From assembly GCA_027491435.1 (NCBI GenBank), contig JAOZFG010000004.1, positions 160,001-224,000 on the forward strand: 64,000 nt of DNA, in the 5' to 3' direction. Positions 19,737 to 35,693 of the stretch are shown here, piece after piece (the stretch's first letter is position 1; every line of letters starts with the position of its first letter). Under the pieces are notes generated by a model, which saw nothing but the letters and a program-made list of their open reading frames with translations, was not told the origin of the DNA and did no database searches. The stretch comes from Thermoproteota archaeon (lineage in GTDB: Archaea; Korarchaeota; Korarchaeia; Korarchaeales; Korarchaeaceae). The position numbers and the translations under genes were made by a program.

Positions 19737-21062
19737 ATGGATAGTTTCATCTGTTATGTAGTTCCTCTATTTTCTCCTTCAATCATTTTATTTACAGGCC
19801 TACTAATATCTGGGAGATTGGAAGAAGCCCCTCTGACGGGTCTCCTAATATACGTTCCTTTTCTCCTATTTATCAGACAGCCTTTTAATGCTTATGTGGG
19901 TCTACTATTCCTTCCCATAGCGGCTTATGCTCTCCTTAAAAATAGATCTAGATATAAACTAGAATTAGATTACTTACAAATAATTTCTATAATTCTCCTT
20001 ATATATCTAATGCTTTTTAAGCCAATAGTGGCGTCTTGGACTAACCCAGACGACCGCATTCACTATCATGAGATTAAATCTTTTTATAAGGATCCGATAT
20101 CTATGACGTTATATCTCAGATACACTCCTCTATTCTACATATTCGGGGCCGTGATCAGGTCGTTAACTCCCTCACCTCTATGGATGATATCGCTAAGGTT
20201 ACTCTTAGTGATAATAATTTTTATAAATTTTGGGCTATTACGCGATTTATCCTTAAAGACGGGAGCCGATTGGAGGATAACTTCGGCATCTTACCTAGTT
20301 ATAGGGGCTCCCTTTATAGCCTTATTTTCGACGGGCACGTATCCCAACGTGATGATGGACTACCTAGTCCTCCTATCCTTTAAGAAGCTCTTGGAGGGTG
20401 AGAAAAGGTCAGCCTACTTGATTGCCCTTCTCCTACCTGCCCTTCACATAACTTCCCTACTTTACTTGTACTTCCTCCTGATGACCTCGATCAATTCCAG
20501 CGAGAGCAGGATGGCTAAGTACTTGATACCGCCAACCGTCACATCTCTAGCGTTCTTGGTTCTGTACCTGAAGATGCCTGACTACATCAGCCTGTACTTG
20601 GCTAACGGCTTTAGCCCAGAGAACTTATTACATTTTCCCGTGATGTACATACATAGCTTAAAGGCAATAGGGATTGTCGCTTTACTGTCTATCTTATCAA
20701 GAGATCTTAGGAAAAACCCTATAATTATTCTAATGGTTCTGAACATGGCTGTCGCCTACCTGTTCTCGCTCTCCATGCTCGGGGTAGCCTGGCGGATCCT
20801 GCAGGCCTACTCATACCTTTACGGGTGGTCCTTCTCTCTTCTTAAAAATAAGTTGGGAATAAAGTCATATGTGGCAACCGTAGTAATAGCTCTCTCGATA
20901 AGTTCTATATTTTTTGCATCAATGGACGCGTATCAGTATAAATTTATTGACATAATCTGCTCTCACAACTGTATGGCTATGGTCTACGAAAGGCTGTACC
21001 ATAACTTCATTGAGGTGGTGGGATGTGCTGGAGAGCTTATCTCCGGGGTCCCTGGTAGGTAG
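19737..21062 (+). CDS. Polytopic membrane protein, probable GT-C fold glycosyltransferase
   Basis: About 12 TM segments; loop motif PDDRIHY...YTPLFY; AT-richer than flanks. Confidence 0.55.
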   Translation: MDSFICYVVPLFSPSIILFTGLLISGRLEEAPLTGLLIYVPFLLFIRQPFNAYVGLLFLPIAAYALLKNRSRYKLELDYLQIISIILLIYLMLFKPIVASWTNPDDRIHYHEIKSFYKDPISMTLYLRYTPLFYIFGAVIRSLTPSPLWMISLRLLLVIIIFINFGLLRDLSLKTGADWRITSASYLVIGAPFIALFSTGTYPNVMMDYLVLLSFKKLLEGEKRSAYLIALLLPALHITSLLYLYFLLMTSINSSESRMAKYLIPPTVTSLAFLVLYLKMPDYISLYLANGFSPENLLHFPVMYIHSLKAIGIVALLSILSRDLRKNPIIILMVLNMAVAYLFSLSMLGVAWRILQAYSYLYGWSFSLLKNKLGIKSYVATVVIALSISSIFFASMDAYQYKFIDIICSHNCMAMVYERLYHNFIEVVGCAGELISGVPGR

Positions 21063-22218
21063 ATTCCCACATTTTAGAGGCTAACCCTCCAGTATATTTC
21101 ACTTTGTCCACTACTTTTTCGGCGTCTTTCCTCTTCCTTTTGTGCTCATCCAAGAATTTAATGACCTTCTCTGTCAAGTACGCCTTACATTCCCCACAGA
21201 GTATCTCTCCCCTCTTACAGGCCCAGTACCTCTCCTCTAACTTCTTATCGTCGGGCTCGAAGAATATCTCCAACCACTTGAATACCACGCATTTCTCAGG
21301 CTCTCCTCCCTTCTCCCTCTGCTCTTTGGCTGTAGCCCTTCCCCCTGTGAAGGCGAATTTCCATATCTTCCTTTTCACATCTTCTGGGCTATCCGTCAAG
21401 TATATAGCTGTTTCAGGCTTGCTAGCACTCATCTTCCCGGATATTCCCGTGAGAGGGGGGAAGAACTTAGAGTGTATAGCGGCAGTCTTGTAGTAGCCTA
21501 GGCTCTCGGCGTAATCCCTTTGAATCCTCCAGTAGGGATCCTGATCTATTGCCGCAGGTATCAAGCACCTCCTCCTTTCGAAGAAAGTAGGGGCCGCCTG
21601 AATCGCTGGAAAGAATATCATCCCTATCTTGCTCTGTTCGTTGAACCCGAAGACAGCTCTAGCCGTGGAAAAAGTGACCTTCTTAGCTATGGGAAGGGCC
21701 ATCTCATATATTTTAGTGAATTCGCTGTCCTGGAAGATGAACGTCTTGTCCGGGTTAAAGCCTACGGCGACTATGTCCAGGATGTTGTCAAGGGCCCACT
21801 TCCTAGTATCCTCTAAAGTGAGCTCCGGCTTAAAGAAGAATTTCTCATCGTCAGTTATCTGTATGTAAAGGTTGACGTCGAATTTCTCTTGAAGCCACTT
21901 AGTCATGTAAAACGGTATTATGTGTCCAATGTGCATCGGGCCAGATGGTCCCCTCCCAGTGTACAGGAAGAATCCCCTTCCCTCTTCGTAGTCTTTCAAC
22001 ACCAGATCGTAATCCCTATGGGAGAAGAAGAACTTCCTCCTGAGAAATATGGGTAACTCCGACTTGGTAAGCTCCTGCGTCTTTTTAAGTAGGTCATCGG
22101 TTAAGGGTTGAGTTCCAAACCTCTCTATTAGCTTCCTGTAGTCGACTACGCCTTCCACTTCCCAAGGAGTTACAATGAAATCTTCCAGTGAGGTCACCCC
22201 CTCACCAAAATACGTCAC
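21037..22218 (-). CDS. trpS: Tryptophanyl-tRNA synthetase (main frame; probably entered by +1 frameshift from ATG 22228)
   Basis: VTPWEV, LYTGRGPSGPMHIGH, PAAIDQDPY, KMSAS. Confidence 0.97.
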   Translation of the reverse strand: MTYFGEGVTSLEDFIVTPWEVEGVVDYRKLIERFGTQPLTDDLLKKTQELTKSELPIFLRRKFFFSHRDYDLVLKDYEEGRGFFLYTGRGPSGPMHIGHIIPFYMTKWLQEKFDVNLYIQITDDEKFFFKPELTLEDTRKWALDNILDIVAVGFNPDKTFIFQDSEFTKIYEMALPIAKKVTFSTARAVFGFNEQSKIGMIFFPAIQAAPTFFERRRCLIPAAIDQDPYWRIQRDYAESLGYYKTAAIHSKFFPPLTGISGKMSASKPETAIYLTDSPEDVKRKIWKFAFTGGRATAKEQREKGGEPEKCVVFKWLEIFFEPDDKKLEERYWACKRGEILCGECKAYLTEKVIKFLDEHKRKRKDAEKVVDKVKYTGGLASKMWESTYQGPRR

Positions 22219-22228
22219 CCGAGGGCAT
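22202..22228 (-). promoter_or_regulatory. trpS leader ORF MPSGDVFW* with candidate +1 frameshift site TTT-TGG-TGA and internal SD GGGTGA
   Basis: ATG CCC TCG GGT GAC GTA TTT TGG TGA; the +1 frame continues TTT GGT GAG GGG GTG ACC TCA CTG GAA into TrpRS. Confidence 0.75.
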
Positions 22229-22259
22229 ATGCCTGCTCCCCGGGGACTACAAAATAAAG

Positions 22260-22859
22260 TTAATTGGACCCTAACTCCTCGGAGAGAACTTCGCTGACTT
22301 CCTCATAAACCTTGCTGGCTGAAAGCTTTATGCTCTTATCCAAAAGCTCTCCGCTTATTCCGGCAGTTTTCTCTATACTCAAGGCCACTGCCATTGAATA
22401 GGCCTCTGAGATTATACCAACACTCCAGAGGACTCCTTTCTCTAATGACAATATCAAATCAGGCTTTCCCCTTTCAACTAGAATATTTGTGATTTTTATT
22501 AGAATAACCCCTATAAGTGCTAAGAACTGTCTCATAGAGACCCCAAACTTACAATGAGCTAGCCCTACTTTGGAGATTTTAAGAGCATGCCTGTAACCAA
22601 AGCCCTCAGAGAAGAGATTCCTAATACACAATTCAAGCAAATTTTCAGCCGCCTCTCTAGTAAGCCCAACGGCCTTCACTATTTCAAAGGATTCTTTGTC
22701 AGCCAATAAGATATCTACGGCCTCTTTTACAACTTCCTTTAAGCCATCATCACCAAGAACTTTATACACTTCCCTAATATTCTTTATATCCTCTTCAGAA
22801 ATTCTCAGAAACTCTCTTAAATTGGAATGTATCTCTTCAAGTCTGCTTATGAACTCCAA
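22260..22859 (-). CDS. Protoglobin / sensor-globin-like single-domain protein
   Basis: FLRISEEDI N-terminus and KVGLAHCKFGV proximal-His segment; AT-rich. Confidence 0.65.
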   Translation of the reverse strand: MEFISRLEEIHSNLREFLRISEEDIKNIREVYKVLGDDGLKEVVKEAVDILLADKESFEIVKAVGLTREAAENLLELCIRNLFSEGFGYRHALKISKVGLAHCKFGVSMRQFLALIGVILIKITNILVERGKPDLILSLEKGVLWSVGIISEAYSMAVALSIEKTAGISGELLDKSIKLSASKVYEEVSEVLSEELGSN

Positions 22860-22949
22860 AATCTCACCGAAGAGACGACGGTAACTGTTCTAAATAAAAA
22901 TATGCTATACAAGTTTTCTTTACTCGTAATAATGACATGGGTCAACTGT

Positions 22950-23550
22950 GGTTATGACAGGTCTATGGAGTATTGCTCCTTCTCTCTAAATGGCAACGAT
23001 ATGGGGAGCCTTCCCATGATCCTGCTCATCAGTTGAGCGAGCTCATTGTAATTCTCCTGGCTAAGCATGAGGTAGCAGACCCCCCCAAATTACTGGTATT
23101 TTCTTAGCCCCTTATAAGTGACTTTTCGAAACTCAAGAGCTCTTACTGCTAGAATGGAGAGGGACTTGGAAGTCATACCCTAAGTTATAATTTTTATGAG
23201 GTCAATATAATCTCTAAAGGTTGATCCCAATAACAGCAGCTGAAGTTATACCCCTGCCAGATCCGCAGGAACAGGAGTAATTTCCTTACATCTCAACTGG
23301 AGCACATCAGGTAGACTTCATATATCACGTCCCACGACTTGAGGAGGGTCATTACGTGATGAAATGCATATCTATTACCTCTAATTAAAACATTAACCCT
23401 GTCTAGCAACACGATGCTCCCTTCTAAAGACATGAATGGACCTGCTTGGAGGGTTATGGAGCTGCTTTACCTCCGGCAGGTCTGGTAACCTGACGGGCTT
23501 CCCTTCCAGGAGATCCCTCAGCACTTTGCTGAGCTCCAGGTATATTTTCT
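22950..23550 (-). pseudogene. Degraded coding fragments
   Basis: Protein-like stretches (IYLELSKVLRDLLEGKPVRLPDLPEVKQL; MLSQENYNELAQLMSRIMGRLPISLPF) broken by stops, with no start. Confidence 0.3.
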
Positions 23551-23551
23551 A

Positions 23552-24061
23552 TCAGTATGGTGGCACAATAACCACGATCTTATTTGCCAAAAACCTCCTC
23601 AGGTCGTCCAAGCCCTTTAGGATGAACGTGTCGACTACCTCGTAAGTTTCTACCCTGGTGTTGCCAGCTATTATCACCACCGGGACCTTACCTATCCTCC
23701 TAAAGAAGTAGTATCCATTGTACGGCTTCTCCAAGAACTCCTTCTCCCTATCGGTGAGCATCTTCCCAACTATCTTGCCAATTCCCTCCGGAGCCTTATG
23801 TCCCCCCAACACCACAACTATCTTGGCCCAGCTGAACGATTCGTCGTAGTGCTCTGGCGACCTTACTTCAGCGTCAATCCCCATACCCATCAACGCTTTC
23901 TGTAACTTGGTGGCGGCAGGCCTATCAATGCTGTTAGATATGATGGCCACAGGCCCACTTAAATCAGCAGCTGTAATCGCTACAGGAGTTAATAGGATTG
24001 CCATAACGAGCACAAGGGAAAGCTTGGACCAGCTCATCACTATCAGGGCCGGGGACGGCAT
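23552..24061 (-). CDS. Secreted/cell-surface protein (S-layer-associated domain)
   Basis: Signal peptide; NSID..AA, VVVLGGHKAPEG, IIAGNTR..T. Confidence 0.65.
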   Translation of the reverse strand: MPSPALIVMSWSKLSLVLVMAILLTPVAITAADLSGPVAIISNSIDRPAATKLQKALMGMGIDAEVRSPEHYDESFSWAKIVVVLGGHKAPEGIGKIVGKMLTDREKEFLEKPYNGYYFFRRIGKVPVVIIAGNTRVETYEVVDTFILKGLDDLRRFLANKIVVIVPPY

Positions 24062-24120
24062 AATAAGGTTTCCATGTTCAAAATCAAACTATTTTTATTT
24101 GTACGTCGTATCGTCAACTT

Positions 24121-24179
24121 GGCCTATGATGAGAATTCCTTCGCCGGCATCAATGACGACCGACGGGCGGCCTGAGGCC
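24121..24179 (+). ncRNA. Box C/D methylation-guide sRNA; D guide targets the 16S rRNA C1402 equivalent
   Basis: GGCCT/AGGCC terminal stem; C box ATGATGA 24126-32; C' ATGACGA 24153-59; D box CTGA 24172-75; guide GACGGGCGG complementary to universal 16S CCGCCCGUC. Confidence 0.85.
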
Positions 24180-24374
24180 GCCTACCTATCTAACCTCACA
24201 TGTCTAGGCCTTCGGGGGCTGCTGGGGATAGCTTATGAGTTATGATAGTCACATGCCTATCAGGATCTTATCAGGCGCAGCCCCTCCTGGAGAGGGTTCA
24301 GGAAGGGGGCTTTCCTCCGCAAGATACCCAAACCCTCTTTTATATACACAGGCCCTATTTCAGGGTGTTGAGGG

Positions 24375-26060
24375 ATGGGAGGAGAGGCCGTTCATATAGG
24401 AGGAATAATCTACATGACCATAGCCGTGTCCCTAGCCGTTCTATACAACAGGATAAGCCCGATAGTAATCCTCCCATCCCTCATGATCGCATCCCTTATA
24501 GGCAAGGCCTTTGGCGTCGCTCCCCCACTGATAATAGCCTCTCTGAGCCCTTTCGCTTTAGCTCTCTTAGTGTTCACGGCAGGTATTGAGCTGGATACCG
24601 ACTTCTTCAAGAAGGAGAAGGAGAGGCTCCTTTTCTTCATATTCGTTGAAGCCTCCATAATACTGACCCTATACGGGATCCTCAGGACCGTGTGGTCTTG
24701 GGAGATGGCCCTAACCTTAACGGCCATAATGATCGCATCAAATGAGGCCTTTGCCTATGAGTTGGGAAAGAAGATTGATAAGACCCTCGCTAATTACGGG
24801 ATAGCTATATCCATAATGGAGGACTCCCTGGCCATATTGCTAGCTTCAATAGGCTATTTCACTTCTCTAAAAGTCTCTCAGGAGGTGTTAGTGGCCGTTA
24901 CAGCTTGGAGCCTCCTGTCAATAATAGTGTCTTACTTTATCTCCATCTGGATAGACAGGATGATTAAAAGAGCTAGGGAGTTGAGCACTAAAGTCCTGAT
25001 AACCCTCCTCTACCTGCTCATACTAATCTCGATGTCAGAGCTAATGCACATGCCTGAGGCGCTAATAGTTTTCATAGGGGCCATAGCGATAGCCTTTAGG
25101 GGGTTTGACAAGGAGACTCTGAAGGTCATAGAGAGCTTCATGATCCTTGCTTTGATGGGCTTCGTGATGAGCCTGCCGTACGAGGTAACCTTAAAGGGGG
25201 CCCCCACGTTATTTGACGTGGGAGTGATCTACTTTAAGGCAGTGTTGCTCGGCTTCATCTTGGCAATTTTAGCCTTCATTATAAGGTTTGCAGCCCTCTT
25301 CTCAGCTTTCTTCTTGAGCGGGATAGAGTTCATGAGGGGGCTGAGGCTCAGCGTCGCTCTAGCTAACACAGGTGAATTTGGGCTAGTAGTTCTAGCCACA
25401 CTCCTAGCTGGCGGTCTGGAACTCCCTCCCGAGGTGGCTTTAGGCGCCATGTTCGCCTACGCCTTTAACCTGACCATCTTAAACCTGTTAGTCAATAGGA
25501 TAGGCCCCATTATAGCCTGGATGACTCAAGGTCCCACGGCGGAGATAATGGAGAAGGTTAGGGAAGCCCATAAAGAGGTGAAGCTCATAGTAGATGGGCT
25601 ATTCTCAGACGTTAACTTCAAGAGGCACATATACGAGCTCATATTCCTGGGCACTATGACCTATTTCTTGACGGGCCTATTCTACAGAGTAGCTGAGAAT
25701 CCCTTGCTGTCCCAAGTGGTCGTGGTGCTTATGACCTCCGCCCTATTCTCGTCCCTGTTCGTCGTGTTTAACAGGATATCCCAGGACTTGTTGAGGGCTG
25801 GCGCAGGTTTCTCTTACAACAAGGCTTTCAGCTCTATACTGAGAATTCTAATAATTTACGTGATACTTCTGCCGTTGATAGGGCTGGTGAGCGACCTAAT
25901 AAGGAGGAGTATCAAGGTAACCTTCTCAAACCCCCTGATCTTCCTGTTGATAGTGTTCTTCTCAGTGTTCTTCGTGAAGATGGCCGACTCGTTCATAAAC
26001 ATGCTGTCCAAAGGTGTTCCCGGTGAGATACCTGGCGTTGGGCAACCTGACTCTGGATGA
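24375..26060 (+). CDS. Cation:proton antiporter (CPA2/Kef-like) with extra C-terminal TM helices
   Basis: LLVFTAGIELD, SIMED, ANTGEFGLVV motifs. Confidence 0.75.
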   Translation: MGGEAVHIGGIIYMTIAVSLAVLYNRISPIVILPSLMIASLIGKAFGVAPPLIIASLSPFALALLVFTAGIELDTDFFKKEKERLLFFIFVEASIILTLYGILRTVWSWEMALTLTAIMIASNEAFAYELGKKIDKTLANYGIAISIMEDSLAILLASIGYFTSLKVSQEVLVAVTAWSLLSIIVSYFISIWIDRMIKRARELSTKVLITLLYLLILISMSELMHMPEALIVFIGAIAIAFRGFDKETLKVIESFMILALMGFVMSLPYEVTLKGAPTLFDVGVIYFKAVLLGFILAILAFIIRFAALFSAFFLSGIEFMRGLRLSVALANTGEFGLVVLATLLAGGLELPPEVALGAMFAYAFNLTILNLLVNRIGPIIAWMTQGPTAEIMEKVREAHKEVKLIVDGLFSDVNFKRHIYELIFLGTMTYFLTGLFYRVAENPLLSQVVVVLMTSALFSSLFVVFNRISQDLLRAGAGFSYNKAFSSILRILIIYVILLPLIGLVSDLIRRSIKVTFSNPLIFLLIVFFSVFFVKMADSFINMLSKGVPGEIPGVGQPDSG

Positions 26061-26880
26061 AAAGGGGGACTGGATAGGGCTTGGGGGCACCGTAGCTTAC
26101 GGGGCCTGGGCCGCTTTGCACTTCACGAACTCGGTTCTAGTCATCTCTAAGGTAGGGAAGGACTTTAATCTAGATTTATTGACCCCTCTACAGGATCTAG
26201 GAGCGTCCTTCCTTATAGAATTCAACGAGGAAACTGCCAGGTTCAGGAGGGAGAAGGGAAGGCTGGTGATGGTATCGCCAGGGCCTGAGGGATACGAGGA
26301 TCTCCCTTTCCTCCCTGAGAACTTCGATGTGATACACCTGGGCCCTGTCTCAGGGGAATTAAGCGAAGAAACCGTTAAGCGGGCTTTAAAATCCAATTTC
26401 GTGACCATAGACGCTCAAGGTGTGTTGAGGTCCAGGGTTAGGGGGCCCATCAAGTTAGAGGATGGCGAATGGTTGCTAAACAACCGCCTGGATCTGGTGC
26501 ACCTGAACCTGGAGGAGGCTTCCTTCCTGACAGGCCTAGAGGACCCTAGGGAAGCTCTTAATTCCCTGAAGAACTCGTTTAGAGGCGTGTTACTGACGCT
26601 AGGTGAGAGAGGAAGCCTGGTATACTTTGAGGGCAACCTTTGGGAGGTGCCTGCCCTTACCCTAAGGCTGGTGGACCCTACCGGGGCCGGTGACGTGTAC
26701 ACCGCCTCCCTGGCAGTGCTCCTATCCTCGGGAGAGGAGCTTAGAGACGCAATTTCCAAGTCAGTGGCCTTAACTTCTGTTATACTTGAGCACGTTGGAG
26801 TCCCTACAAAGCTAGTCTCCCGGGATGAAATAGAGAGGAGGGCAGAAATGGTCAGATCTAAGATGAAGCGCATCCACTGA
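26023..26880 (+). CDS. PfkB-family carbohydrate kinase
   Basis: GGTVAY, NLEEA, LTLGERGS, VDPTGAGD. Confidence 0.9.
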   Translation: MRYLALGNLTLDEKGDWIGLGGTVAYGAWAALHFTNSVLVISKVGKDFNLDLLTPLQDLGASFLIEFNEETARFRREKGRLVMVSPGPEGYEDLPFLPENFDVIHLGPVSGELSEETVKRALKSNFVTIDAQGVLRSRVRGPIKLEDGEWLLNNRLDLVHLNLEEASFLTGLEDPREALNSLKNSFRGVLLTLGERGSLVYFEGNLWEVPALTLRLVDPTGAGDVYTASLAVLLSSGEELRDAISKSVALTSVILEHVGVPTKLVSRDEIERRAEMVRSKMKRIH

Positions 26881-27064
26881 TGCCTAACGGTTATATTTCT
26901 CGCCTTCTCTGTCTAAGGGGTGGTGCAATAGGACGCACGATGAGCCTCCCGGCCTGATAATAACCTCAATATCCCCGGAGGAGACCTATGAGAACGGGCT
27001 TAGAAGGCTGGATCCCCTTATACTGGGAAGCATATCTCTAATAGGCCTTAAAGAGGATGAAGTC

Positions 27065-27661
27065 ATGGCCAGCGATAGGAGGTTAAGGAGGGCAGGAACC
27101 TTTGAGGTTCCCAGTGGGGTGATGATGGCCCTCTTCGTCCCTACTAGGGCTGGAATGGCAAGGTTAGTTTCTTTAGGCAGGGTTCTGGCTACAGTCTCGT
27201 CAGCGGATTGGGCTAAAGCCTCTCAGGAACCTAATGACATGGAGGAGGTCAGGAGGATAAACTCGGAGGTCAAGGACTTCTTAGGGAGGGAGGTGGTGAC
27301 CCCCCTGGACAGGGTCAAGGACGGGTACTTGATAGTGGCCGAGAACGTGCTCAAGTCTGGGGTTATATTCCCTGGGATGGGGGAGTGGCCTGATGAAGGT
27401 TTTATACTGACCGAAAGCTGGCTCGAACTTTCGAACCTTAAAGGGGGTTTTGCGGGCTTTTGGGGGAGAACCTGGGGCAGGCTCTACGCCATGTCCCCAA
27501 GAGAAGCCCTGACCTTGCTGGTAGGATCTATGGCCTCCTCCCCAACGTTAGAAGGTCTGCTCAACATAGAGAGGGCTGAGAACTTCACCGAGTTAATAGA
27601 TCTTGAGATAAGGAGGCTAAGGTATTTGGGCTGGCACCGCCTTTACAGGGGCATGATATGA
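27065..27661 (+). CDS. Hypothetical protein in lipoate-ligase operon; frame is open upstream to 26888
   Basis: ATGA overlap with lplA; protein-like upstream extension without a canonical start. Confidence 0.6.
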   Translation: MASDRRLRRAGTFEVPSGVMMALFVPTRAGMARLVSLGRVLATVSSADWAKASQEPNDMEEVRRINSEVKDFLGREVVTPLDRVKDGYLIVAENVLKSGVIFPGMGEWPDEGFILTESWLELSNLKGGFAGFWGRTWGRLYAMSPREALTLLVGSMASSPTLEGLLNIERAENFTELIDLEIRRLRYLGWHRLYRGMI

Positions 27662-28389
27662 GGTGGAGACTTCTCCTGATAGAAGGTGACGCAGCCTTTA
27701 ACATGGCCGTTGACGAGGCCCTTATGGTAATTGGCACGCCAACAGTTAGGTTCTACAGGTTCAGGCCTTCAGCGGTGACCATAGGCAGATTTCAAAGGGT
27801 CTCCGATTCAGTTAACTTGGAGGCTTTAAGCGAGTTGGGCATTAAATTCGTCAGAAGACCCACGGGCGGGGGTTCAGTATTCCACGACGAATTGGGTGAG
27901 ATAACCTACAGCGTGGCTGGTCCCAGGGAACTATTTCCCGTCTCCATAGAGGGGAGCCTGAGGTGGATAGCCAAGGGGGTGATTAAAGCCCTCGATGAAT
28001 TAGGCGTTAAGGCCGAGCTATCGGGAATAAACGACGTGGTGGTCAACGGGAGGAAGATATCTGGGAGCGCACAGGCTAGAACTAAGCATAACCTCATGCA
28101 ACACGGCACTCTCATGTATGCCACAGACTTAGAGAAGCTCTCCAAAGTGCTGAGAGCGCCCAAGGAAAAGTTAGCCGATAAGGGGGTTACCTCAATATAT
28201 GAGAGGGTTACCACAGCTTCTCTAGTCCTTAGCAGGAGGATCTCATACGAAGAGGCCTTAGAAGCCATGATAAAGGGCTTCTCCTTCCTGGGAGAGCTTG
28301 AAGAGGGTGAACTAACTGATTCAGAGCTAGAAGTTGTCAGGAGGTTGGTGAGCAAGTATGAGTCGAGGGAGTGGAACTTTAGATATTAG
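27658..28389 (+). CDS. lplA: Lipoate-protein ligase catalytic subunit
   Basis: NMAVDEAL, VRRPTGGGSVFHD, ND...GRKISGSAQ, QHGTL. Confidence 0.92.
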   Translation: MRWRLLLIEGDAAFNMAVDEALMVIGTPTVRFYRFRPSAVTIGRFQRVSDSVNLEALSELGIKFVRRPTGGGSVFHDELGEITYSVAGPRELFPVSIEGSLRWIAKGVIKALDELGVKAELSGINDVVVNGRKISGSAQARTKHNLMQHGTLMYATDLEKLSKVLRAPKEKLADKGVTSIYERVTTASLVLSRRISYEEALEAMIKGFSFLGELEEGELTDSELEVVRRLVSKYESREWNFRY

Positions 28390-28669
28390 GAGGAGGTCCA
28401 GGCAGGGTAAGACGTTTAGGGTATCTCTGGAGCTGAGGGAGGGTAGGGTGGTCAGCTTCACCCTTTCAGGTGATTTCTTCGCCTATCCAGCCGAATCCCT
28501 CGACGAAATAGGTGAGGAGGTTGCAGGTCTAGAGCCGTCGGAGTTCATTAAAGTAGTTGAGTCCCGCCTTAAAGAGGTTGAACTGGCTGGAGTTGATAAA
28601 AAGGAGCTGATGGAAGCGATTAAGGAGCTTCTCTCACCCTTCCTTGGGTCCCACCGCCGGAGAACCTGA
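28358..28669 (+). CDS. Lipoate-protein ligase accessory (C-terminal-domain) subunit
   Basis: V......TLSGDFFAYP motif; directly follows lplA. Confidence 0.8.
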   Translation: MSRGSGTLDIRRRSRQGKTFRVSLELREGRVVSFTLSGDFFAYPAESLDEIGEEVAGLEPSEFIKVVESRLKEVELAGVDKKELMEAIKELLSPFLGSHRRRT

Positions 28670-29297
28670 TTATGAAGTCAGCGGCCATCTTAGCGGCCCT
28701 GCGGACGAGTCCCCTGTCCACGCCGGGAACCCCTGCAGCCACTATCAGGACGTCCTCAGTCCCTTCAGTTATCATTGTCTCCCTGGAATCCCTGTGGGGA
28801 TACAAGAACATGACCTTCTCATCGTCAGCCAGCACAACCTCCTTCCCGGTGAGCCTTTCCTCCCCTCCTCCTATCGGCTTAAAGATCTCCCCCTCCCTGG
28901 CCATTCTGAGAGTTGGATCCCCCCTAACCTTTGACAGGTCGTATAAGCCTATGGGGACTAAGGTCTTAGCGCTCACTAAGTTACCAGCGTCCACTACGCT
29001 GTTTATCAGGGGAAAGGGCTTATCCCTGAGTATCCTCCTAACTAATGCCTCGCTGCTAGGCCTCGTCTTGGTAGGGTCTATGCCGATCCTCCAGTAAAAA
29101 TCCCGGTAGGCCCTAACCACTGGATCCCTCCTCAGGGATTCTAGGGTGTGCTTCCCCTTTATTTCCCCCACTTCCTCTTTAAGAACCTCCAAGGCATCTC
29201 CTTGAGTCTTAGAGACTTTAACGCTCCTAACTATCGTCCATGAGACGAACACTCCCATGGAGGCTACCTCTTCGTCCACGCTCACCTCGATATCCAA
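28620..29297 (-). CDS. Stand-alone B3/4-domain protein (PheRS-beta-like trans-editing family)
   Basis: AYRDFYWRIGIDPTKTRPSSEALVRR, INSVVDAGN, GLYD. Confidence 0.9.
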   Translation of the reverse strand: MDIEVSVDEEVASMGVFVSWTIVRSVKVSKTQGDALEVLKEEVGEIKGKHTLESLRRDPVVRAYRDFYWRIGIDPTKTRPSSEALVRRILRDKPFPLINSVVDAGNLVSAKTLVPIGLYDLSKVRGDPTLRMAREGEIFKPIGGGEERLTGKEVVLADDEKVMFLYPHRDSRETMITEGTEDVLIVAAGVPGVDRGLVRRAAKMAADFIIRFSGGGTQGRVREAP

Positions 29298-31858
29298 GGG
29301 TTAACCCTCCTTATCTCCTTCCTCCTACCCCTTCTCTTGAGAATCATCAGGAGGCTCAATAATAACGCTATTGGTAGGGCCAAGGCCCACACAGGAACGT
29401 CGAAGAGCTGCTTCCTGGGAGGAGGAACAGGGGGTTTGCTGGGAGCCACTGTCTCAACTTTAGATGGGACTACCACAACCTTCTTCCTCCTTATCACGTA
29501 ATTTCCGGCCTTATCAACTACCTTCACAGATATTATGAACTCTCCAGTTTTCTTAGGTTTGAAGGAGGCCTCATTCGGCCCTGGAGAGTCGAAGGTACCG
29601 TCTCCATCCGTGTCCCATATTATGGTGACCTCCTCGTTTGCCATAACTTTAGCCCTCACCGGCGAGCCCAAGAGAACCTTATCAGGTTCCACGGTCAGAT
29701 TGGCTTGAGGAGGGGTGTTATCCACTATTACCCTAGCTGCGTCAGTGACGCTCCTATTCCCTGATCTGGCCTCCACCATAAGCTCGTATTCACCGTCTTT
29801 GAGGGAGGCCACGTCCCACTGATATTCGCCCTGCACCTTGCCAACTCTTATCCAATCCCGCTCCCCGCTCGCCCTATAGTAAAGGTAAGCTACATCGAAC
29901 GATCCTTGAACCTTGATGGACACGTACTTCGAGTGAGGTCCCTCATCAACTTTAAGCTCGACTTCTAGCGGCTTCGCTTCACTGCTGTTGTGTTCTAGAG
30001 GTTTACCCACCACCCTGTAAACCATGACCTTGGAGACCTCGTTGTGGTAACGGTCCCTCGCTGAGATCTTGAACTGTACATACCCCCTTGTCTTGAGCAC
30101 GACGTTGGTGACGTTGAACTTTATCTGAGTGCCACACAAGTAGGACCTCTCGCTCACCACTTTACTCCAGGACACGTCATTTCTAGCCCTGTAGTCCATG
30201 GAAACCCAACAGAGCTCTCCAGTAACGTGATATGTCGGTTGTACCGTGATTATGGCGTTCTGAGCTGGAAGGGTGGACATGTTCTTAGGCGAAATGATCA
30301 GCCCTGGTGGTTTGTTCATCAGATGGAGCCCAATGGTAACAGAGGTCACCTGCACGCCGTCAGAGGCCTCTATCCTGAAGGACGGAGCCGAATCGACGTT
30401 GAGTTCGATGACCTCCCCAGAGCCCACCTCCTCCGAGTAGATCACAGTCCAGTCGCTGTACAGGGCGTAAACAGTGACGTTGAGCCTGTGAGCCTTGTCG
30501 TCGTTTACGCCGAACTTAAGCTCAACTGAAGGTCCTATAGTTGAGAGGTTCTTTGGGCTCATCACGTTAATTGAGGGCGGATTATCCACAGTACCCTCTG
30601 GCTCGTTAAACATTATCACTTTGTGATTTACCATGTAGGAGCCCACGAAATCCTTCACACCCATCACTATCTCCAGGACCCCATCTCCATCCAAGTCTCC
30701 CGCTGAGGGCCTGGTCACAGGTATGTCTTTGAGGAAGAACTTTCTGAGCAGCGTGCCGTCCTCGTTCACTATCATAAGGTAGTTCCCGAATACCACCACA
30801 GCCTCTGGCAAACCGTCGCTGTCGAGGTCGGCCATAACTGGTTGTGCCGTGGACATCTCTCCAGTAAGCTTGGGGTCGAACTTCCACAGGGTCCCTCCAG
30901 TCCCGCTTACTGCCGTCAGGTACCTCCGGTCCTCAACGAATATCACGTCATCCTTGCCGTCGCCGTTGACGTCAGCCACCGCTGGAACGCCGAGGTTTCC
31001 AACGACGCTCCAAGCCTTGTTCCCATCTATTACCCCAGCTATGTAGGTCCTTGAATATGCCACAACGTCATCCTTGCCGTCGCCGTTCAAGTCCCCCACT
31101 ACAGGCGGCCCATAACAAGGCTCGCTCGAGTACTCGTCCAGTACATCCTTATCGTGGTTCTTAACCAATATGCCTCTGATGGTGCCCATCAACACCTCAA
31201 GGTAACCGTCCCCGTCCACGTCGCCGGCGGAGAGCCCTCTAACCTTGCCAGTTGAGCTGAATATATAATACTCGCTGTCCGTAGAGTAGGGATCGTCCTT
31301 CCACCAAAGCCTGCTGTTATCCACCCAGAAGACCTCATTCACCCCGTCGTTGTCGAAATCGACTATCAGAGGTGGCGGAGCTCTCTCGCTCATGTAATCG
31401 GGAAAGGACTTAACGATCCCAACTCCGGACACCGAAGCCACCCTGCCGTCGGTGGTCATGATCTTCACGTTCAAGGAGCCGCTGCTGGGGTCCCAACAAG
31501 TGTAGACCAGAGCCTCCTTACCGCCTTGGACTAGCCCGTAGGTGGGGGAGACAACCTCGCCTGAGCTGCATGCCTTGCGCTTGCTTATCATACCGTTCTT
31601 ATCCACGAATATGAAGTAGCCGTCCTCAGAGGTAAAGACAGCTTTCCTCCCGTCCCAATCAACTATTAGGGGTGGCAAGCTGCTCAGCTTGGGGAGCACG
31701 GTGGAGGAGCCAAGCTCCTTCATGACGAGCCCTTCTCCCATCAACCCCCTTCCCGTTGCGTGTCCGCTGCTCCTTATGTCAGATAATATGGTCTCCCAGG
31801 CGTTAACCGGTAGGGGGACCAACAGGGCTATCAGGAGCAAAGGAAGGTATCTTTTCAA
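29282..31858 (-). CDS. Surface protein with FG-GAP/VCBS beta-propeller repeats, Ig/PKD-like domains and C-terminal TM anchor
   Basis: Repeated GD(L/V)(D/N)GDG..(E/D) motifs; WDTDGDG; TM followed by KRRGRRK. Confidence 0.85.
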   Translation of the reverse strand: MKRYLPLLLIALLVPLPVNAWETILSDIRSSGHATGRGLMGEGLVMKELGSSTVLPKLSSLPPLIVDWDGRKAVFTSEDGYFIFVDKNGMISKRKACSSGEVVSPTYGLVQGGKEALVYTCWDPSSGSLNVKIMTTDGRVASVSGVGIVKSFPDYMSERAPPPLIVDFDNDGVNEVFWVDNSRLWWKDDPYSTDSEYYIFSSTGKVRGLSAGDVDGDGYLEVLMGTIRGILVKNHDKDVLDEYSSEPCYGPPVVGDLNGDGKDDVVAYSRTYIAGVIDGNKAWSVVGNLGVPAVADVNGDGKDDVIFVEDRRYLTAVSGTGGTLWKFDPKLTGEMSTAQPVMADLDSDGLPEAVVVFGNYLMIVNEDGTLLRKFFLKDIPVTRPSAGDLDGDGVLEIVMGVKDFVGSYMVNHKVIMFNEPEGTVDNPPSINVMSPKNLSTIGPSVELKFGVNDDKAHRLNVTVYALYSDWTVIYSEEVGSGEVIELNVDSAPSFRIEASDGVQVTSVTIGLHLMNKPPGLIISPKNMSTLPAQNAIITVQPTYHVTGELCWVSMDYRARNDVSWSKVVSERSYLCGTQIKFNVTNVVLKTRGYVQFKISARDRYHNEVSKVMVYRVVGKPLEHNSSEAKPLEVELKVDEGPHSKYVSIKVQGSFDVAYLYYRASGERDWIRVGKVQGEYQWDVASLKDGEYELMVEARSGNRSVTDAARVIVDNTPPQANLTVEPDKVLLGSPVRAKVMANEEVTIIWDTDGDGTFDSPGPNEASFKPKKTGEFIISVKVVDKAGNYVIRRKKVVVVPSKVETVAPSKPPVPPPRKQLFDVPVWALALPIALLLSLLMILKRRGRRKEIRRVNPWISR

Positions 31859-31949
31859 ACCATCACCGTTTTATAACGCTGGTCTCATAAATTGGTGTTA
31901 CACCCACCAAGTAATAGCTCCATCCTATAAGCGTATTAAAGGTGTCCCG

Positions 31950-33746
31950 ATGAAGGCCAAGTTCACACTGATAACAGCGCTAATGACTGCCCTCTCAGTG
32001 GGAACAGCTACAGGAGTTCAGAGGACCGTCCTTTCTCTGTTCTCAGAGGAGCTAGTGAGTTATCAGTCGCTGGCCATGGTGCTGACCTTCTTGCCCATAC
32101 TGACGTTCGGCATGCTCAAGGGTTTGGCTGACCTGCTGGCGGGCCTCATGTCCGACAGGTTTGGCAGGAAGCCCGTGGTACTCATGGGCACCATCTCTTA
32201 CGCTGTAGGGATGCTAATTATGTTTGAGAGTCAGAATATAGTTCAGCTGGCTGTAGCTAACGTCCTCATAGGCTGGAGCCAAGGATTGGTGGATGCAGCA
32301 ATAATGATAGTGCTCTCAGACTTAGGAGGCCCTGAGAAGCAAGGTCTCAGCATGGGCCTCATGGAGGGGTTCATCTATGGAGGTTACGCCTTCGGTTCGA
32401 TATCCTCAGGCTGGGTAGCTGAGCTTCAGGGCCTCAGAGAATCCTTTCTTATAGGTGTTGTGTTCTCTACACTAGCTATAGTGGCCTCAATCCTGCTCTC
32501 TGAGACGAGGGAGGAGAGTTCGGGGGACGTCAACGATATGGGGACCTTAGAGGCTTACAGAAAGTGCTTCGAGAGCACCACCCTCAAGATGACCTTCCTG
32601 CTAGGCCACGTGGACCAGTTCTCAGACGCCCTAGTGTGGGCAAGCCTCCCCCTACTCCTGAACTCCTTGGGCTACTCCAGGTTCGAGATAGGTTTAGTTC
32701 AGGGAGTTAACACCATAGCTTGGGCCGTGATGATGCCCCTCTCAGGCAAGGTATCCGACGTCTTCGGAAGGAAAGTGCCCATGCTGATGGGACTAACGCT
32801 AAAGGCCCTGGGCTTGCTCTCCTTCTCCTTCCAACCCGATCTATTCCAGTCTGTAGCCCTTTCATCAATGATAGGCGCTGGTGTTGGACTCTACTATCCA
32901 GTTATACCTGCCGTAGTCGCAGACTCCTCTCCGCCCTCCGTTAGGGGAAGGGCCCTCGGGCTCTACAGAGGGATTAGAGATATGGGCTATGTGACCGGCT
33001 CCCTCGCGCTTGGAGTTATTAGCGAATTTCTGAGCGTTCAAGCGGGCTTCTTGCTGACCCCAATACTAATATTTCTCTCGCTCCCCGCCTTGATTGCCAT
33101 AAAGGAGACTAGGCCGTTCTGGCCGGCCTATAACCTTGTGTTAGAACACGCTGAGAAGGTCAAGGAGTGTGTGGAGGAGCTAGGCAAGATGGTGGAATCC
33201 TATTACAGGGGTAGGAGGGACGTCGAGTCGTTAAAGGCCATAAAAGCCCTGGAACATGACGCTGACATGATAAAGGTGATGATAGACAGGCAGCTATGGC
33301 TTAGCAGTCTCACAGGCCAGGACAAGGCGGACTTTGCCAGGTTAGTCGGCAGGGTTGACAGGATAGCCTCCTTCGCCTTGGGCGCCTCAAGGAGCCTCAA
33401 CGTGGTGGACCCTGGGAGCATTCCTCCGGATGTGAAGGACCTAATGCCCGACATGGTCAAGATATCCATTTGGTCGATGAACAGGTTATACAAAGCTCTT
33501 AAACTGGCTAGGGAGGACGTTGAGAGGGCCCTAGAGGTTATAGGCGAGATAGACAGGTTAGAAGCCCTCTTTGACGAGCTCCACCTGAGGGCCATGGAAG
33601 GGTTAAGACACGCCAACATGGACTTAATTCAGCTATTGAGCTTGAGGGACTTCCTGGAGAGGTTTGAAAACCTGGTAGACTCAATAGAGGACGCATCAGA
33701 CGTTCTAAGAGTCATCATTTTTAAGCATATGGCGTGGCCAACATGA
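31950..33746 (+). CDS. MFS transporter fused to a C-terminal DUF47 (PhoU-like) domain
   Basis: G.MSDRFGRK and GKVSDVFGRK motifs; C-terminal ALEHDADMIK...LVGRVDRIA...ENLVDSIEDASD; ATG 31950. Confidence 0.85.
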   Translation: MKAKFTLITALMTALSVGTATGVQRTVLSLFSEELVSYQSLAMVLTFLPILTFGMLKGLADLLAGLMSDRFGRKPVVLMGTISYAVGMLIMFESQNIVQLAVANVLIGWSQGLVDAAIMIVLSDLGGPEKQGLSMGLMEGFIYGGYAFGSISSGWVAELQGLRESFLIGVVFSTLAIVASILLSETREESSGDVNDMGTLEAYRKCFESTTLKMTFLLGHVDQFSDALVWASLPLLLNSLGYSRFEIGLVQGVNTIAWAVMMPLSGKVSDVFGRKVPMLMGLTLKALGLLSFSFQPDLFQSVALSSMIGAGVGLYYPVIPAVVADSSPPSVRGRALGLYRGIRDMGYVTGSLALGVISEFLSVQAGFLLTPILIFLSLPALIAIKETRPFWPAYNLVLEHAEKVKECVEELGKMVESYYRGRRDVESLKAIKALEHDADMIKVMIDRQLWLSSLTGQDKADFARLVGRVDRIASFALGASRSLNVVDPGSIPPDVKDLMPDMVKISIWSMNRLYKALKLAREDVERALEVIGEIDRLEALFDELHLRAMEGLRHANMDLIQLLSLRDFLERFENLVDSIEDASDVLRVIIFKHMAWPT

Positions 33747-33747
33747 G

Positions 33748-34215
33748 ATGAGGAAGCCCAGACCTCCAGGAAACTTCTCCTTCGTAGACGAGTGGGTCGC
33801 CGGGTCGGCCATGCTGCACGAGCCCGAAAACGTAGACTGGATCTTCTCCAAATCGATAAAGGCGATCATATCTCTGGATCCAATGATACCAGATGAGGTC
33901 GTGGAAAGGATCAAGGAGCTTGGGATAAAGCATTACCTGAAACCAATAGTAAATTTCTCGGCGCCCACATTGGAGCAGCTAGAGGACATAGTCGACACCA
34001 TAGTGGAGCACGTGAAAAAGGGGAAGAAGGTGCTGGTTCATTGCTGGGCCGGTTGTGGCAGGACAGGCACGGTCTTGGCTGCCTACCTAGTGTGGAAGGG
34101 TATGGACGCTGACGTAGCGGTTGCTAAGCTCAGGAGCCTAAGACCTTGTTCCATAGAGACTCAGAGCCAACTGGATGTGGTCTGGTATTACTGGAGGGTT
34201 AGGAAGGCTACCTGA
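33748..34215 (+). CDS. Dual-specificity/PTP-family phosphatase
   Basis: VHCWAGCGRTG (HCX5R); LRPCSIETQSQ. Confidence 0.92.
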   Translation: MRKPRPPGNFSFVDEWVAGSAMLHEPENVDWIFSKSIKAIISLDPMIPDEVVERIKELGIKHYLKPIVNFSAPTLEQLEDIVDTIVEHVKKGKKVLVHCWAGCGRTGTVLAAYLVWKGMDADVAVAKLRSLRPCSIETQSQLDVVWYYWRVRKAT

Positions 34216-35629
34216 TTATCCTCCACTTGGTTCCCTGGGGGGTATCCTGAAGCTCTATGCCCAGGTCCCTTAACCTTCCTCTTATCTCATCCGATAATTC
34301 GTACATTCTCCTCTGCCTTAGCTGGGACCTCACTTCCAACAGAAGCTGTACTAGGGACTTCAGCATCACCGAATCGACGGCCCTCTCAACCCTTATCCCG
34401 AGAACGCTAAGCATTTCGTTGAAGGTTGAAAGGAGGATCCCCTTACCCTGCTCGCTTATCTCCCCTACCTCAGAGACGTAAGCGTTTGTCAACCTGATTA
34501 GCTCGTACAGGTTGGCCAGAGCTTCAGGAGTGTTAAAGTTATCCGCTAGGGACCTAAAGAACCTGTCCCTCAGATCCTTAACCTTATTTAACAGCTCAAC
34601 CTCTGCATTCCCCACTTCGGAGTTGACCTCCAAGTCATAGAGGTTGTCGTAAGCGGTCTTTATCCTCTGATAACTGCTCCTGGCCTGATCGAGGAGTTCC
34701 CACCTGAAGTCCATGGGAGATCTGTAGAAGCTGGAGATCAGGAGGAGCCTCACGGGCTCCGGGCCATATTCCTGGACCACGTCCCTTATCCTTATTATGT
34801 TGCCCAAGGACTTGGACATCTTCTCTCCCTTGATGGTCAGGAGCCCTATGTGAATCCAGTACTTCACGAAGGGCTTAACTCCAGTGTAACTCTCGGCTTG
34901 CGCTATCTCGGCCTCGTGATGTGGGAAGGCAAGCTCTATAGCGCCCCCATGTATGTCGTATTGCTTCCCGAAGTGCTTTATGGTTATGGCCGTGTCCTCT
35001 ATGTGCCACCCCGGCCTCCCATAGCCCCAGGGAGACTCCCAGCCGAACTCGTCCTTTGGTCTCTTCCTCCAGAGGGCGAAGTCGCCGGGGTTCCTCTTGG
35101 TGGGATCCGGCTCTATCCTGTGAACCCTCAGCTCCTCTATCTTCTGCTTGGACAGCTTGCCGTAGTCTGGAAACGTTGTTATATCGAAGTAAACCCCAGT
35201 CTCAGTCTCGTAAGCGTGTCCCTTCTCCAGCAGAACCCTTATCTGGTCCCATATCTCCGGCAGGTAGTCTGAAGCCCTGGCGTACAGGTTCACGCTGGTG
35301 ACGTTAAGAGACTCCATGTCCTCGTAGTAAAAGCTCTCGTACTTCCTGGCCAGCTTCAGCGGGTGCATCCCCTCCTCCTTGGCCCTGTTAATTATCTTAT
35401 CGTCTACATCCGTGATGTTCACCAAGTAGAAGAGCGAGTACCCTGCCCACCTTAGGTACCTGGCCACCGTGTCGAAGAACGTGAATACCCTTCCATGGCC
35501 TATGTGGGAATAGTCGTAGACAGTGGGGCCGCACACGAACATGAAGACCCTCTTACCGTAGAGGGGAACGAACTTCTCAACACGGCCCGTGAGGGTGTTG
35601 TAAACTCTCAGGTCAGCAAAGGCCGTCAC
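34208..35629 (-). CDS. cysS: Cysteinyl-tRNA synthetase (main frame; probably entered by +1 frameshift from ATG 35633)
   Basis: CGPTVYDYSHIGH, DFALW, GRPGWHIE, FPHHE, KMSKS. Confidence 0.97.
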   Translation of the reverse strand: MTAFADLRVYNTLTGRVEKFVPLYGKRVFMFVCGPTVYDYSHIGHGRVFTFFDTVARYLRWAGYSLFYLVNITDVDDKIINRAKEEGMHPLKLARKYESFYYEDMESLNVTSVNLYARASDYLPEIWDQIRVLLEKGHAYETETGVYFDITTFPDYGKLSKQKIEELRVHRIEPDPTKRNPGDFALWRKRPKDEFGWESPWGYGRPGWHIEDTAITIKHFGKQYDIHGGAIELAFPHHEAEIAQAESYTGVKPFVKYWIHIGLLTIKGEKMSKSLGNIIRIRDVVQEYGPEPVRLLLISSFYRSPMDFRWELLDQARSSYQRIKTAYDNLYDLEVNSEVGNAEVELLNKVKDLRDRFFRSLADNFNTPEALANLYELIRLTNAYVSEVGEISEQGKGILLSTFNEMLSVLGIRVERAVDSVMLKSLVQLLLEVRSQLRQRRMYELSDEIRGRLRDLGIELQDTPQGTKWRIIR

Positions 35630-35645
35630 CCATGAGGGTCACCAC
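35613..35645 (-). promoter_or_regulatory. cysS leader ORF MGDGLC* with SD GTGGTGA, internal SD GGGTGA and candidate +1 frameshift site CTT-TGC-TGA
   Basis: GTGGTGA-CCCTC-ATG GGT GAC GGC CTT TGC TGA; the +1 frame continues TTT GCT GAC CTG AGA GTT TAC AAC into CysRS. Confidence 0.75.
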
Positions 35646-35693
35646 GAAGGTCCCCCAGATCATCTTTTAAACTTAACCCAGGATCCTAACTCC

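Follow-up and report, generated by a model that had tools for sequence, protein, structure and literature searches.

Here comparative sequence analysis is used to characterize a short element shared by two aminoacyl-tRNA synthetase genes--trpS, encoding tryptophanyl-tRNA synthetase (TrpRS), and cysS, encoding cysteinyl-tRNA synthetase (CysRS)--within a 64,000-nt stretch of DNA from a Thermoproteota archaeon of the family Korarchaeaceae (termed here the window; it corresponds to positions 160001-224000 of its contig, JAOZFG010000004.1, in an assembly of 1.64 Mb and 43 contigs). This element, termed here the cassette, consists of an ATG start codon, a hexamer complementary to the 3' end of 16S rRNA, a slippery codon followed by T, and a codon for the very amino acid that the downstream enzyme attaches to its tRNA. 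A comparison of 63 loci (16 trpS and 17 cysS loci of the window's genus, together with 30 trpS loci of a distant family, termed f11) establishes the anatomy of the cassette, a constraint that acts in one reading frame upstream of the slippery codon and in another downstream of it, and the restriction of the cassette to trpS and cysS within the genomes scanned. The cassette is probably a programmed +1 frameshift site of the type found in bacterial prfB, in which the slow codon within the ribosomal aminoacyl (A) site would be that of the enzyme's own amino acid; judging from these sequence patterns, we put the likelihood of this interpretation at roughly 60%.

Both cassettes of the window lie on the minus strand. 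Ahead of trpS, ATG (22228) CCC TCG GGT GAC GTA TTT TGG TGA (22204-22202) constitutes a mini open reading frame (ORF) encoding MPSGDVFW* (22202..22228); ahead of cysS, ATG (35633) GGT GAC GGC CTT TGC TGA (35615-35613) encodes MGDGLC* (35613..35633). The TrpRS ORF (21037..22218) and the CysRS ORF (34208..35629) are each in the +1 frame relative to the corresponding mini-ORF. In this respect the sequence bears out an earlier, sequence-only reading of the window, which had described short ATG-led ORFs with the synthetase in the +1 frame at both genes and which had rightly counted 15 identical positions out of 19 between the two 19-mers at 22220-22202 and 35631-35613. Within the trpS cassette, a Shine-Dalgarno (SD)-like GGGTGAC (22214..22220) is situated 3 nt upstream of the slip codon; the slip site, TTT_T (22207..22210), places TTT 22210-22208 in the peptidyl (P) site, from which re-pairing could occur on TTT 22209-22207; and the cognate A-site codon, TGG (Trp; 22205..22207), directly precedes the TGA. 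The cysS cassette is built in the same way, with an SD-like GGTGAC (35625..35630) 3 nt upstream of the slip codon, the slip site CTT_T (35618..35621; P-site CTT 35621-35619, re-pairing on TTT 35620-35618), and the cognate codon TGC (Cys; 35616..35618) directly before the TGA. In the +1 frame the body of TrpRS runs from GGT 22206 (21037..22206) and that of CysRS from GCT 35617 (34208..35617), so that the predicted trans-frame N-termini are MPSGDVF-GEGVTSLEDF... and MGDGL-ADLRVYNTL..., respectively. Both products score above curated equivalog cut-offs: TrpRS as a tryptophan--tRNA ligase (NF008924, 723.6 bits; cut-off 644) and CysRS as a cysteine--tRNA ligase (TIGR00435, 468.8 bits; cut-off 340). 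The CysRS gene is single-copy in the window's genome.

To assess conservation, TrpRS loci were taken from 40 relatives and their 5' ends were read. Within the genus, all 16 trpS loci that retain a 5' end (17 were fetched; L018 is cut) carry the cassette with TrpRS in the +1 frame, in the form ATG-(1-2 codons)-GGT-GAY/GGT-NNN-YTT-TGG-(0-5 codons)-stop. Likewise, each of 17 cysS loci (18 fetched; L048 is cut) has ATG GGT GAY NNN CTT TGC TGA--that is, ATGGGTGAY-NNN-CTTTGCTGA--with CysRS in the +1 frame. The cassette and its +1 offset are therefore kept in relatives, which answers a check proposed in the sequence-only reading; the description given there of the cognate codon as the last sense codon holds only in part, inasmuch as this codon always directly follows YTT in relatives, but 0-5 codons intervene before the stop. 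The compared genomes are akin to one another, so that counts of loci overstate their independence. Beyond the genus, a sister-genus trpS locus (L019) has a variant cassette with GGGGAT, eleven remoter trpS loci (L020-L030) have no cassette, and 12 cysS loci outside the genus have ordinary starts. A natural in-frame variant, with one T fewer, would have marked the trans-frame protein as functional; it is absent from the 40 relatives. The best 30 of 80 metagenome loci also contain no such variant, but these loci are 50-66% identical and have ordinary starts, and are thus uninformative on this point.

The frame in which substitutions and indels are tolerated changes at the slip site. Upstream of it, the distance from ATG to GGTG is 0 nt (cysS), 3 nt (most loci), 6 nt (the window's trpS and L003) or 9 nt (L072), and is thus divisible by three in every one of the 63 loci; hence indels within this segment preserve the frame between the ATG and the slip codon. 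Variants here are synonymous in the ATG frame as well: GAC/GAT; CGT/CGC/CGA in nine cysS loci (which would give Val, Ala or Asp in the +1 frame); and, within f11, CGT/CGC, GGT/GGC, TGC/TGT, CTC/CTT and TTC/TTT. Downstream of the slip site a different pattern obtains. In those genus trpS loci that possess an internal SD and ATG, the distance from the slip site to this ATG is 24, 27, 33, 36 or 39 nt, and the changes before it are mostly at wobble positions of the +1 frame (GGT/GGA, AAT/AAC, CGC/CGG/CGT). Alignment of the cysS loci shows no variation within ATGGGTGA or CTTTGCTGA, while the 19 codons that follow all vary, chiefly at their third positions; when read in the CysRS frame, TTT and GCT thus have fixed wobble bases, which indicates that the overlapping frame (TGC, TGA) is selected also, inasmuch as such fixation is expected under no other condition. 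These patterns show constraint in the ATG frame upstream of the slip site and in the +1 frame downstream of it. A programmed frameshift would be expected to leave just such a mark, with the selected frame switching exactly at YTT_T.

As for the slip site itself, in all 63 loci its codon is either CTT or TTT and the next base is T: CTT in 17/17 cysS loci and in 15/16 genus trpS loci, TTT in the window's trpS and in 30/30 f11 loci. Genes for tRNA-Leu(GAG) and tRNA-Phe(GAA), both of which are able to re-pair on UUU, are present in the window's genome (where aragorn called no tRNA-Trp, an intron-containing or unassembled gene being possible). Equally constant is the larger motif GGTGRY-NNN-YTTT, found in 63/63 loci, in which the hexamer GGTGAT, GGTGGT or GGTGAC lies 3 nt upstream of the slip codon. 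Conserved motifs located no 16S 3' end within the window's assembly, whose 43 contigs probably do not include the rRNA operon; 16S 3' ends were therefore taken from two congeners (GGAUCACCUCC) and from one f11 genome (CGAUCACCUCCU). The former (...GGAUCACCUCC) is complementary to the GGGTGAC of the window's trpS. In pairing with GAUCACCUCC, GGUGAU is fully complementary, GGUGGU pairs via G.U, and GGUGAC pairs at five bases; the A/G change within the hexamer thus alters the encoded residue (Asp or Gly) but keeps the pairing to 16S rRNA, which argues for a constraint at the RNA level. The spacing is that of initiation: genome-wide, the distance from GGTGA to ATG peaks at 4 nt (92 cases), followed by 5 nt (35 cases), with 9 nt in 5 cases, and GGTGA-N4-YTT corresponds to the modal value. 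Inasmuch as YTT is held at normal initiation geometry, the hexamer would more plausibly promote pausing than exert a spring effect. Every locus has one cognate codon, and two Trp codons occur in 18/30 f11 and 2/16 genus trpS loci; the base after TGG is C in 40 of 46 trpS loci (YTT TGG C).

Within genomes, the cassette is confined to the two synthetase genes. The pattern GGTG[AG]N-NNN-YTT-T occurs 48 times on both strands of the whole 1.64 Mb genome, and precisely two of these occurrences, trpS and cysS, pass a filter that demands an ATG upstream in the same frame, termination of the 0 frame within six codons and at least 80 open codons in the +1 frame. Five congener genomes yield 18 pattern matches versus 7 in a reversed control, 10 of the 18 being trpS or cysS, and no other gene in these genomes passes the filter; five f11 genomes yield 23 matches versus 27 in the control, and trpS alone passes. 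When one genome per prokaryotic species (~185,000) was searched with the cysS pattern, 28 matches were obtained: all 13 archaeal matches are cysS cassettes, whereas the 15 bacterial ones are not associated with CysRS and are about as numerous as expected by chance (by our own arithmetic). A relaxed scan of the window's genome, in which the SD-like element was not required, matched 15 of 1558 long frames; three further frames that it returned with a sense A-site codon--one within the N-terminal zinc ribbon of an alanyl-tRNA-synthetase-like ORF and two in unrelated ORFs--were rejected as chance occurrences. Two other loci (L118, at G002:C4:417425-417443, and L124, at G007:C48:38-59) share the head ATG-x-GGTGAY-NNN-CTT, but with TGA directly after it; the +1 frames of these mini-ORFs extend for merely 3 and 12 codons, and the two may be relics or chance matches.

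The distant family f11, which may be Thermococcaceae, judging from the match of TrpRS to PDB entry 3jxe (723 bits for the window's TrpRS), carries the cassette in all 30 trpS loci examined (L009 and L061-L089; 41 of its genomes have the gene), so that the trpS mini-ORF is kept in 16/16 genus and 30/30 f11 loci. Here the form is ATG-NNN-GGTGRT-NGN-TTT-TGG-(2-3 codons)-stop, followed by a spacer of 46-74 nt, an SD and the trpS start. Relative to the mini-ORF, the trpS frame is +2 in 26 loci, 0 in three, and +1 behind a stop in one. The proposal that the cassette stands at the start of the synthetase body is accordingly correct for the genus and incorrect for f11, in which the +1 frame leads instead to a short ORF ending at the trpS start. 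From TTT_T onward this frame is open across the entire spacer in 30/30 loci (20-29 codons), stopping between -3 and +17 nt from the trpS start; in total, the stretch from the slip site to the trpS start contains 85 stops in frame 0, 60 in frame +2 and a single one, abutting the ATG, in frame +1. A shuffled spacer leaves this frame open with a probability of 0.16-0.48, depending on the locus; multiplied over nine divergent representatives, these probabilities give 3e-5--a rough figure, given that the representatives were hand-picked and that the loci are kin. The frame is open, but the sequences of the encoded peptides are not conserved, so that translation itself, rather than its product, appears to be selected; and the ORF ends where translational coupling to trpS would need it to. 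As a separate observation, f11 spacers contain a conserved pyrimidine- or T-rich tract (e.g., CCTTTTTTGG, CTCTTTTAC or CTCTTCT). This tract might serve as an oligo-T terminator of the archaeal kind or might pair, as an anti-SD, with the GGAGGTG of trpS; structure prediction gave no conserved pairing for it.

The two genes differ in their similarity to f11. The window's TrpRS is 77-80% identical to that of f11, whereas its CysRS is merely 44% identical to the CysRS of the single f11 genome examined for it (G037), and the window's genome contains, outside the window, a second TrpRS paralogue with 40% identity (contig C1:10371-11429). This combination indicates an exchange of trpS between the lineages, and it suggests that trpS was laterally transferred together with its leader cassette.

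Where translation begins bears directly on the function of the cassette. In the window, a TATA-like box of trpS, CTTTATTTT (22251..22259, minus strand), comes directly after the stop (22262-22260) of an upstream protoglobin-like gene, and its hexamer ends 24 nt before the ATG. Such a hexamer ends 22-24 nt before the ATG in 12/16 genus trpS loci, the window's included, and 23-24 nt before it in 27/30 f11 loci (in the remaining three the search pattern picked a later T-rich hexamer). According to one report on T. kodakarensis, the TATA box is located a median of 23 bp from the transcription start (PMC4247193). Because the two distances are similar, these mRNAs are predicted to lack a leader, with the ATG at their 5' end, and a GTG 7-13 nt inside such an mRNA would be without an SD. 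By comparison, in the four other genus trpS loci and in every cysS locus a short leader precedes the ATG, its SD being separated from the ATG by 4-5 nt and from the GTG by 9-11 nt, and an alternative start codon is lacking in the synthetase frame before the conserved core. For the window's cysS, specifically, a TATA-like box, GTTTAAAAG (35664..35672, minus strand), is situated about 30 nt upstream of the ATG, with a T/A-rich box at the same place in 17 genus loci; an initiation SD, GGTGA (35639..35643), lies 5 nt upstream of ATG 35633 and 9 nt upstream of GTG 35629 (GGTG is kept in 17/17 loci); and, besides the rival start GTG 35629-35627, the CysRS frame has no ATG, GTG or TTG before the conserved core. 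On these grounds the ATG seems the favoured start; if it is used in the leadered loci, then the enzyme would have to come from a shift, there being no other start. Two incidental features may be mentioned here. A second ATG in frame with the cysS mini-ORF (35661-35663, minus strand) occurs 30 nt upstream, directly after the TATA-like box; among the genus loci compared, it is present in the window's genome only, and it is probably not transcribed. In the window's trpS, the mini-ORF's stop codon, TGA, forms part of a GGTGA at modal SD spacing to GTG 22197.

From these data the following mechanism is proposed. Translation would initiate at the ATG, located close to the 5' end of the mRNA or at that very end; once 4-7 codons have been translated, CUU or UUU would occupy the P site and UGG (trpS) or UGC (cysS) the A site, while the SD-like GGUGRY 3 nt upstream would pair with the 16S 3' end and thereby aid a pause. 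When charged tRNA-Trp or tRNA-Cys is plentiful, the codon would be read, translation would terminate 0-5 codons on and a peptide of 6-12 residues would be released; when the charged tRNA is scarce, the peptidyl-tRNA (Leu-GAG or Phe-GAA) would re-pair on UUU and translation would continue in the +1 frame. Within the genus, this frame would yield the synthetase itself; within f11, it would be that of a coupling ORF translated as far as the trpS start, which would link translation of trpS to the shift. The direction of control would be sensible, with low levels of charged tRNA leading to more enzyme. As regards the idea, put forward in the sequence-only reading, of a frameshift that senses tRNA charging, comparison upholds the shared prfB-like cassette with its cognate A-site codon; what we infer from these patterns is the shift, its dependence on charging, the part played by the SD-like element and, for f11, the coupling. 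A broader view, to which we give slightly better than even odds, is that the cassette is a portable sensor--assembled from an ATG, an anti-16S hexamer, YUU_U and one exchangeable codon--that turns the charging of a single tRNA into synthetase output. It would have arisen on a trpS gene that moved, with its leader, between two archaeal phyla, would have been re-targeted to cysS in one genus by a change from UGG to UGC, and would act either through a +1 enzyme fusion or through a coupling ORF.

Several considerations weigh against a programmed frameshift. No cellular +1 frameshift has been demonstrated in Archaea, according to the frameshifting section of a 2021 review of archaeal recoding (PMC8211752). 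The initiation-like spacing of the hexamer differs from the 'compressed spring' of prfB, leaving a stimulatory role for the SD-like element uncertain. A general mechanism might lead one to expect sister cassettes on further synthetases, yet the cassettes for Tyr, Phe, Ser and Leu that the sequence-only reading had foreseen are absent, by the patterns used here, from the window's genome, five congeners and five f11 genomes. The 25 f11 leaders compared show no conserved structure by which trpS would come to depend on coupling, and one subgroup of the genus trpS loci and all f11 loci have an SD and start of their own for TrpRS, so that the shift is dispensable there. Each GGTG cassette, moreover, holds a GTG in the +1 frame, such that a GTG-initiated ORF is compatible with the sequence, and gene finders would call this ORF. 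In the window's trpS, where the rival starts are GTG 22218-22216 and GTG 22197-22195, the second of these in-frame codons has a GGTGA (22206-22202) exactly 4 nt upstream and is a good ordinary start. The sequence-only reading had named these codons, together with GTG 35629 of cysS, as starts whose use would refute a shift, and all of them are compatible with the sequence. Termination at the mini-ORF followed by reinitiation is, in addition, a possible further route to TrpRS in the window's species.

The last of these points lead to the main rival explanation, namely that the mini-ORF is a regulatory upstream ORF (uORF) that operates without any frameshift: the mini-ORF would be translated and under selection, while the synthetase (or, in f11, the +1 leader ORF) would start at the GTG within GGTGRY or at GTG 22197, and its expression would be modulated either by a ribosome stalled on the cognate codon and occluding the start, or by reinitiation after termination. 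The GTG inside every GGTG cassette, the modal 4-nt spacing of GTG 22197 to its GGTGA, and the independent TrpRS SD and start in some genus trpS loci and in all f11 loci speak in its favour, and the +1 constraint downstream of the slip site fits a GTG-initiated ORF equally well. Yet such a uORF leaves unexplained both the restriction to YTT-T in 63/63 loci and the retention by the hexamer of 16S complementarity through residue-altering A/G changes. It also sits poorly with the substitutions between the GTG and the slip site, which are synonymous in the ATG frame yet fall at second codon positions in the GTG frame, and with the position of the GTG, which lies either 7-13 nt from a leaderless 5' end, and thus without an SD, or 9-11 nt from an SD and thus off the 4-5 nt peak. 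Finally, occlusion by a stalled ribosome would cut synthetase output at low levels of charged tRNA, opposite to known synthetase control; in T-box systems, for example, the logic is the reverse of output falling when charged tRNA is low. Taken together, these considerations make a uORF without frameshifting doubtful, though it remains a serious contender.

A second alternative is that the mini-ORF peptide (M-x-G-D/G-x-L/F-W or M-G-D-x-L-C) acts as a nascent-peptide sensor: like TnaC, it would stall the ribosome that makes it when the free amino acid is present, and translation downstream would be controlled by this arrest. This might account for the recurrence in both genes of the pattern G-D/G-x-L/F-cognate residue and for the Pro that often follows Trp in genus trpS peptides (8/16 loci). 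Against this, the peptides are just 6-12 residues long; residue 4 is Asp or Gly and residue 5 is free while 16S complementarity is kept, which points to constraint on the RNA rather than on the peptide; and the open +1 frame in f11 would go unexplained. An arrest peptide is consequently very improbable. Still more improbable is control by a structured RNA leader (a T-box-like element or riboswitch) or by leader-peptide transcription attenuation through alternative hairpins. Although a short leader ORF with cognate codons is reminiscent of bacterial trpL, and although the T-rich tracts of f11 spacers could serve as archaeal terminators, a scan of the window with Rfam gathering thresholds finds no family at either site, and RNAalifold, applied to 25 of the 30 f11 leaders (five near-duplicates, L078, L080, L082, L085 and L088, having been left out), yields 0 conserved pairs. 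Single-sequence folds of f11 leaders are inconsistent and predict no conserved structure; in particular, mutually exclusive terminator and antiterminator helices after the leader ORF are not found among the 25 f11 leaders, nor does the window have any spacer between mini-ORF and synthetase frame. An artefact or chance--that is, a one-base homopolymer error that splits an ATG start from its gene, or two unrelated out-of-frame ATGs--is excluded: dropping one T from either T-run would indeed fuse the ATG in frame, but the same extra T recurs in 16 + 17 + 30 loci of separate assemblies, single-contig genomes included (which rules out the indel in this assembly against which the sequence-only reading had cautioned), just 2/48 pattern matches within the genome pass the filter, and archaeal matches to the cysS pattern are cysS in 13/13 cases, unlike the 15 bacterial ones.

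If the cassette is indeed a programmed frameshift site, then its closest counterpart is prfB, for which 'an SD sequence just 3 nt upstream' of CUUUGA is described (PMC10798248). As in bacterial prfB, a short 0-frame ORF occupies the 5' end of the gene, CUU_U permits re-pairing on UUU, and an SD-like element is located 3 nt upstream (PMC10798248). As in prfB, too, A-site decoding would be slow when the gene's own product, or what that product makes, is scarce, and (in the genus) the body of the gene is in the +1 frame. Unlike prfB, however, whose A site holds a UGA stop codon read by release factor 2 (RF2), the cassette presents a sense codon, UGG or UGC, read by the enzyme's own aminoacyl-tRNA; on account of this codon the cassette would work like prfB, yet is not a prfB site. 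It differs further in that its stop comes 0-5 codons later, in that UUU_U also serves as a slip site, in that it is archaeal and its SD-like part pairs with GAUCACC of the 16S tail at normal initiation spacing, and in that the +1 frame of f11 would be a coupling ORF rather than a protein.

Partial parallels exist elsewhere. At the heptamer CUU_AGG_C of yeast Ty1, as in 'hungry codon' +1 frameshifting generally, a P-site Leu tRNA slips +1 from CUU while awaiting a scarce aminoacyl-tRNA; the YTT TGG C of most trpS cassettes resembles this heptamer. But Ty1 sets a fixed Gag:Pol ratio by means of a rare tRNA and without an SD-like element, whereas the slow codon of the cassette matches the downstream gene and would thereby close a feedback loop. 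In the trpL and pheST leaders and in the T-box, as proposed for the cassette, the gene's own leader senses charging of the cognate tRNA and raises expression, through a short ORF with cognate codons in the case of the leaders. In contrast to these attenuators and T-boxes, the cassette would have a change of frame as its read-out, and neither alternative hairpins nor terminator logic nor a tRNA-binding RNA came to light for it in this analysis. Archaea are not known to possess T-boxes or leader-peptide attenuators with which to match aminoacyl-tRNA synthetase levels to demand.

Recoding within a cellular archaeal gene has a precedent in fucA1 of Saccharolobus solfataricus, but there the shift is in the -1 direction, takes place on A-AAA-AAT in the middle of the gene, is not known to act as a sensor and is conserved only among close strains. 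The frameshifting section of the 2021 review gives fucA1 as the sole reported programmed -1 frameshift in Archaea, mentions a suspected +1 event in a haloarchaeal virus and contains no synthetase case (PMC8211752). A 2016 review of frameshifting lists as archaeal cases just viruses, Mg-chelatase and Sulfolobus, and a term search finds no mention of tRNA synthetase, trpS or tryptophanyl, within the first 300,000 of its 449,034 characters (PMC5009743). Consistent with the statement in the sequence-only reading that no description of such a system in archaea was known, full-text literature searches, the results of which were judged mostly from abstracts, gave no archaeal trpS or cysS frameshifting and no conserved uORF at these genes.

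Should the proposed mechanism prove true, the cassette would represent the first case of programmed +1 frameshifting in a cellular archaeal gene and the first in which a synthetase regulates its own expression through a frameshift. This would mean that the logic of prfB has evolved anew with a sense codon in the sensing role, that an SD-like element can function within an archaeal coding sequence, and that changing a single codon is enough to direct a 20-nt module to a different amino acid. Annotation pipelines will assign GTG starts to these trpS and cysS genes or call them broken. Because the module is small, it is directly testable and could be reused as a reporter of tRNA charging; and if f11 is indeed Thermococcaceae, then it includes genetically tractable species in which the hypothesis can be tested directly.

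The genes surrounding trpS and cysS are unrelated to either, and include those for a protoglobin-like protein, a phosphatase, an MFS transporter and an FG-GAP protein. The sole Rfam match within the window is a tRNA gene at 46790-46864 (plus strand).

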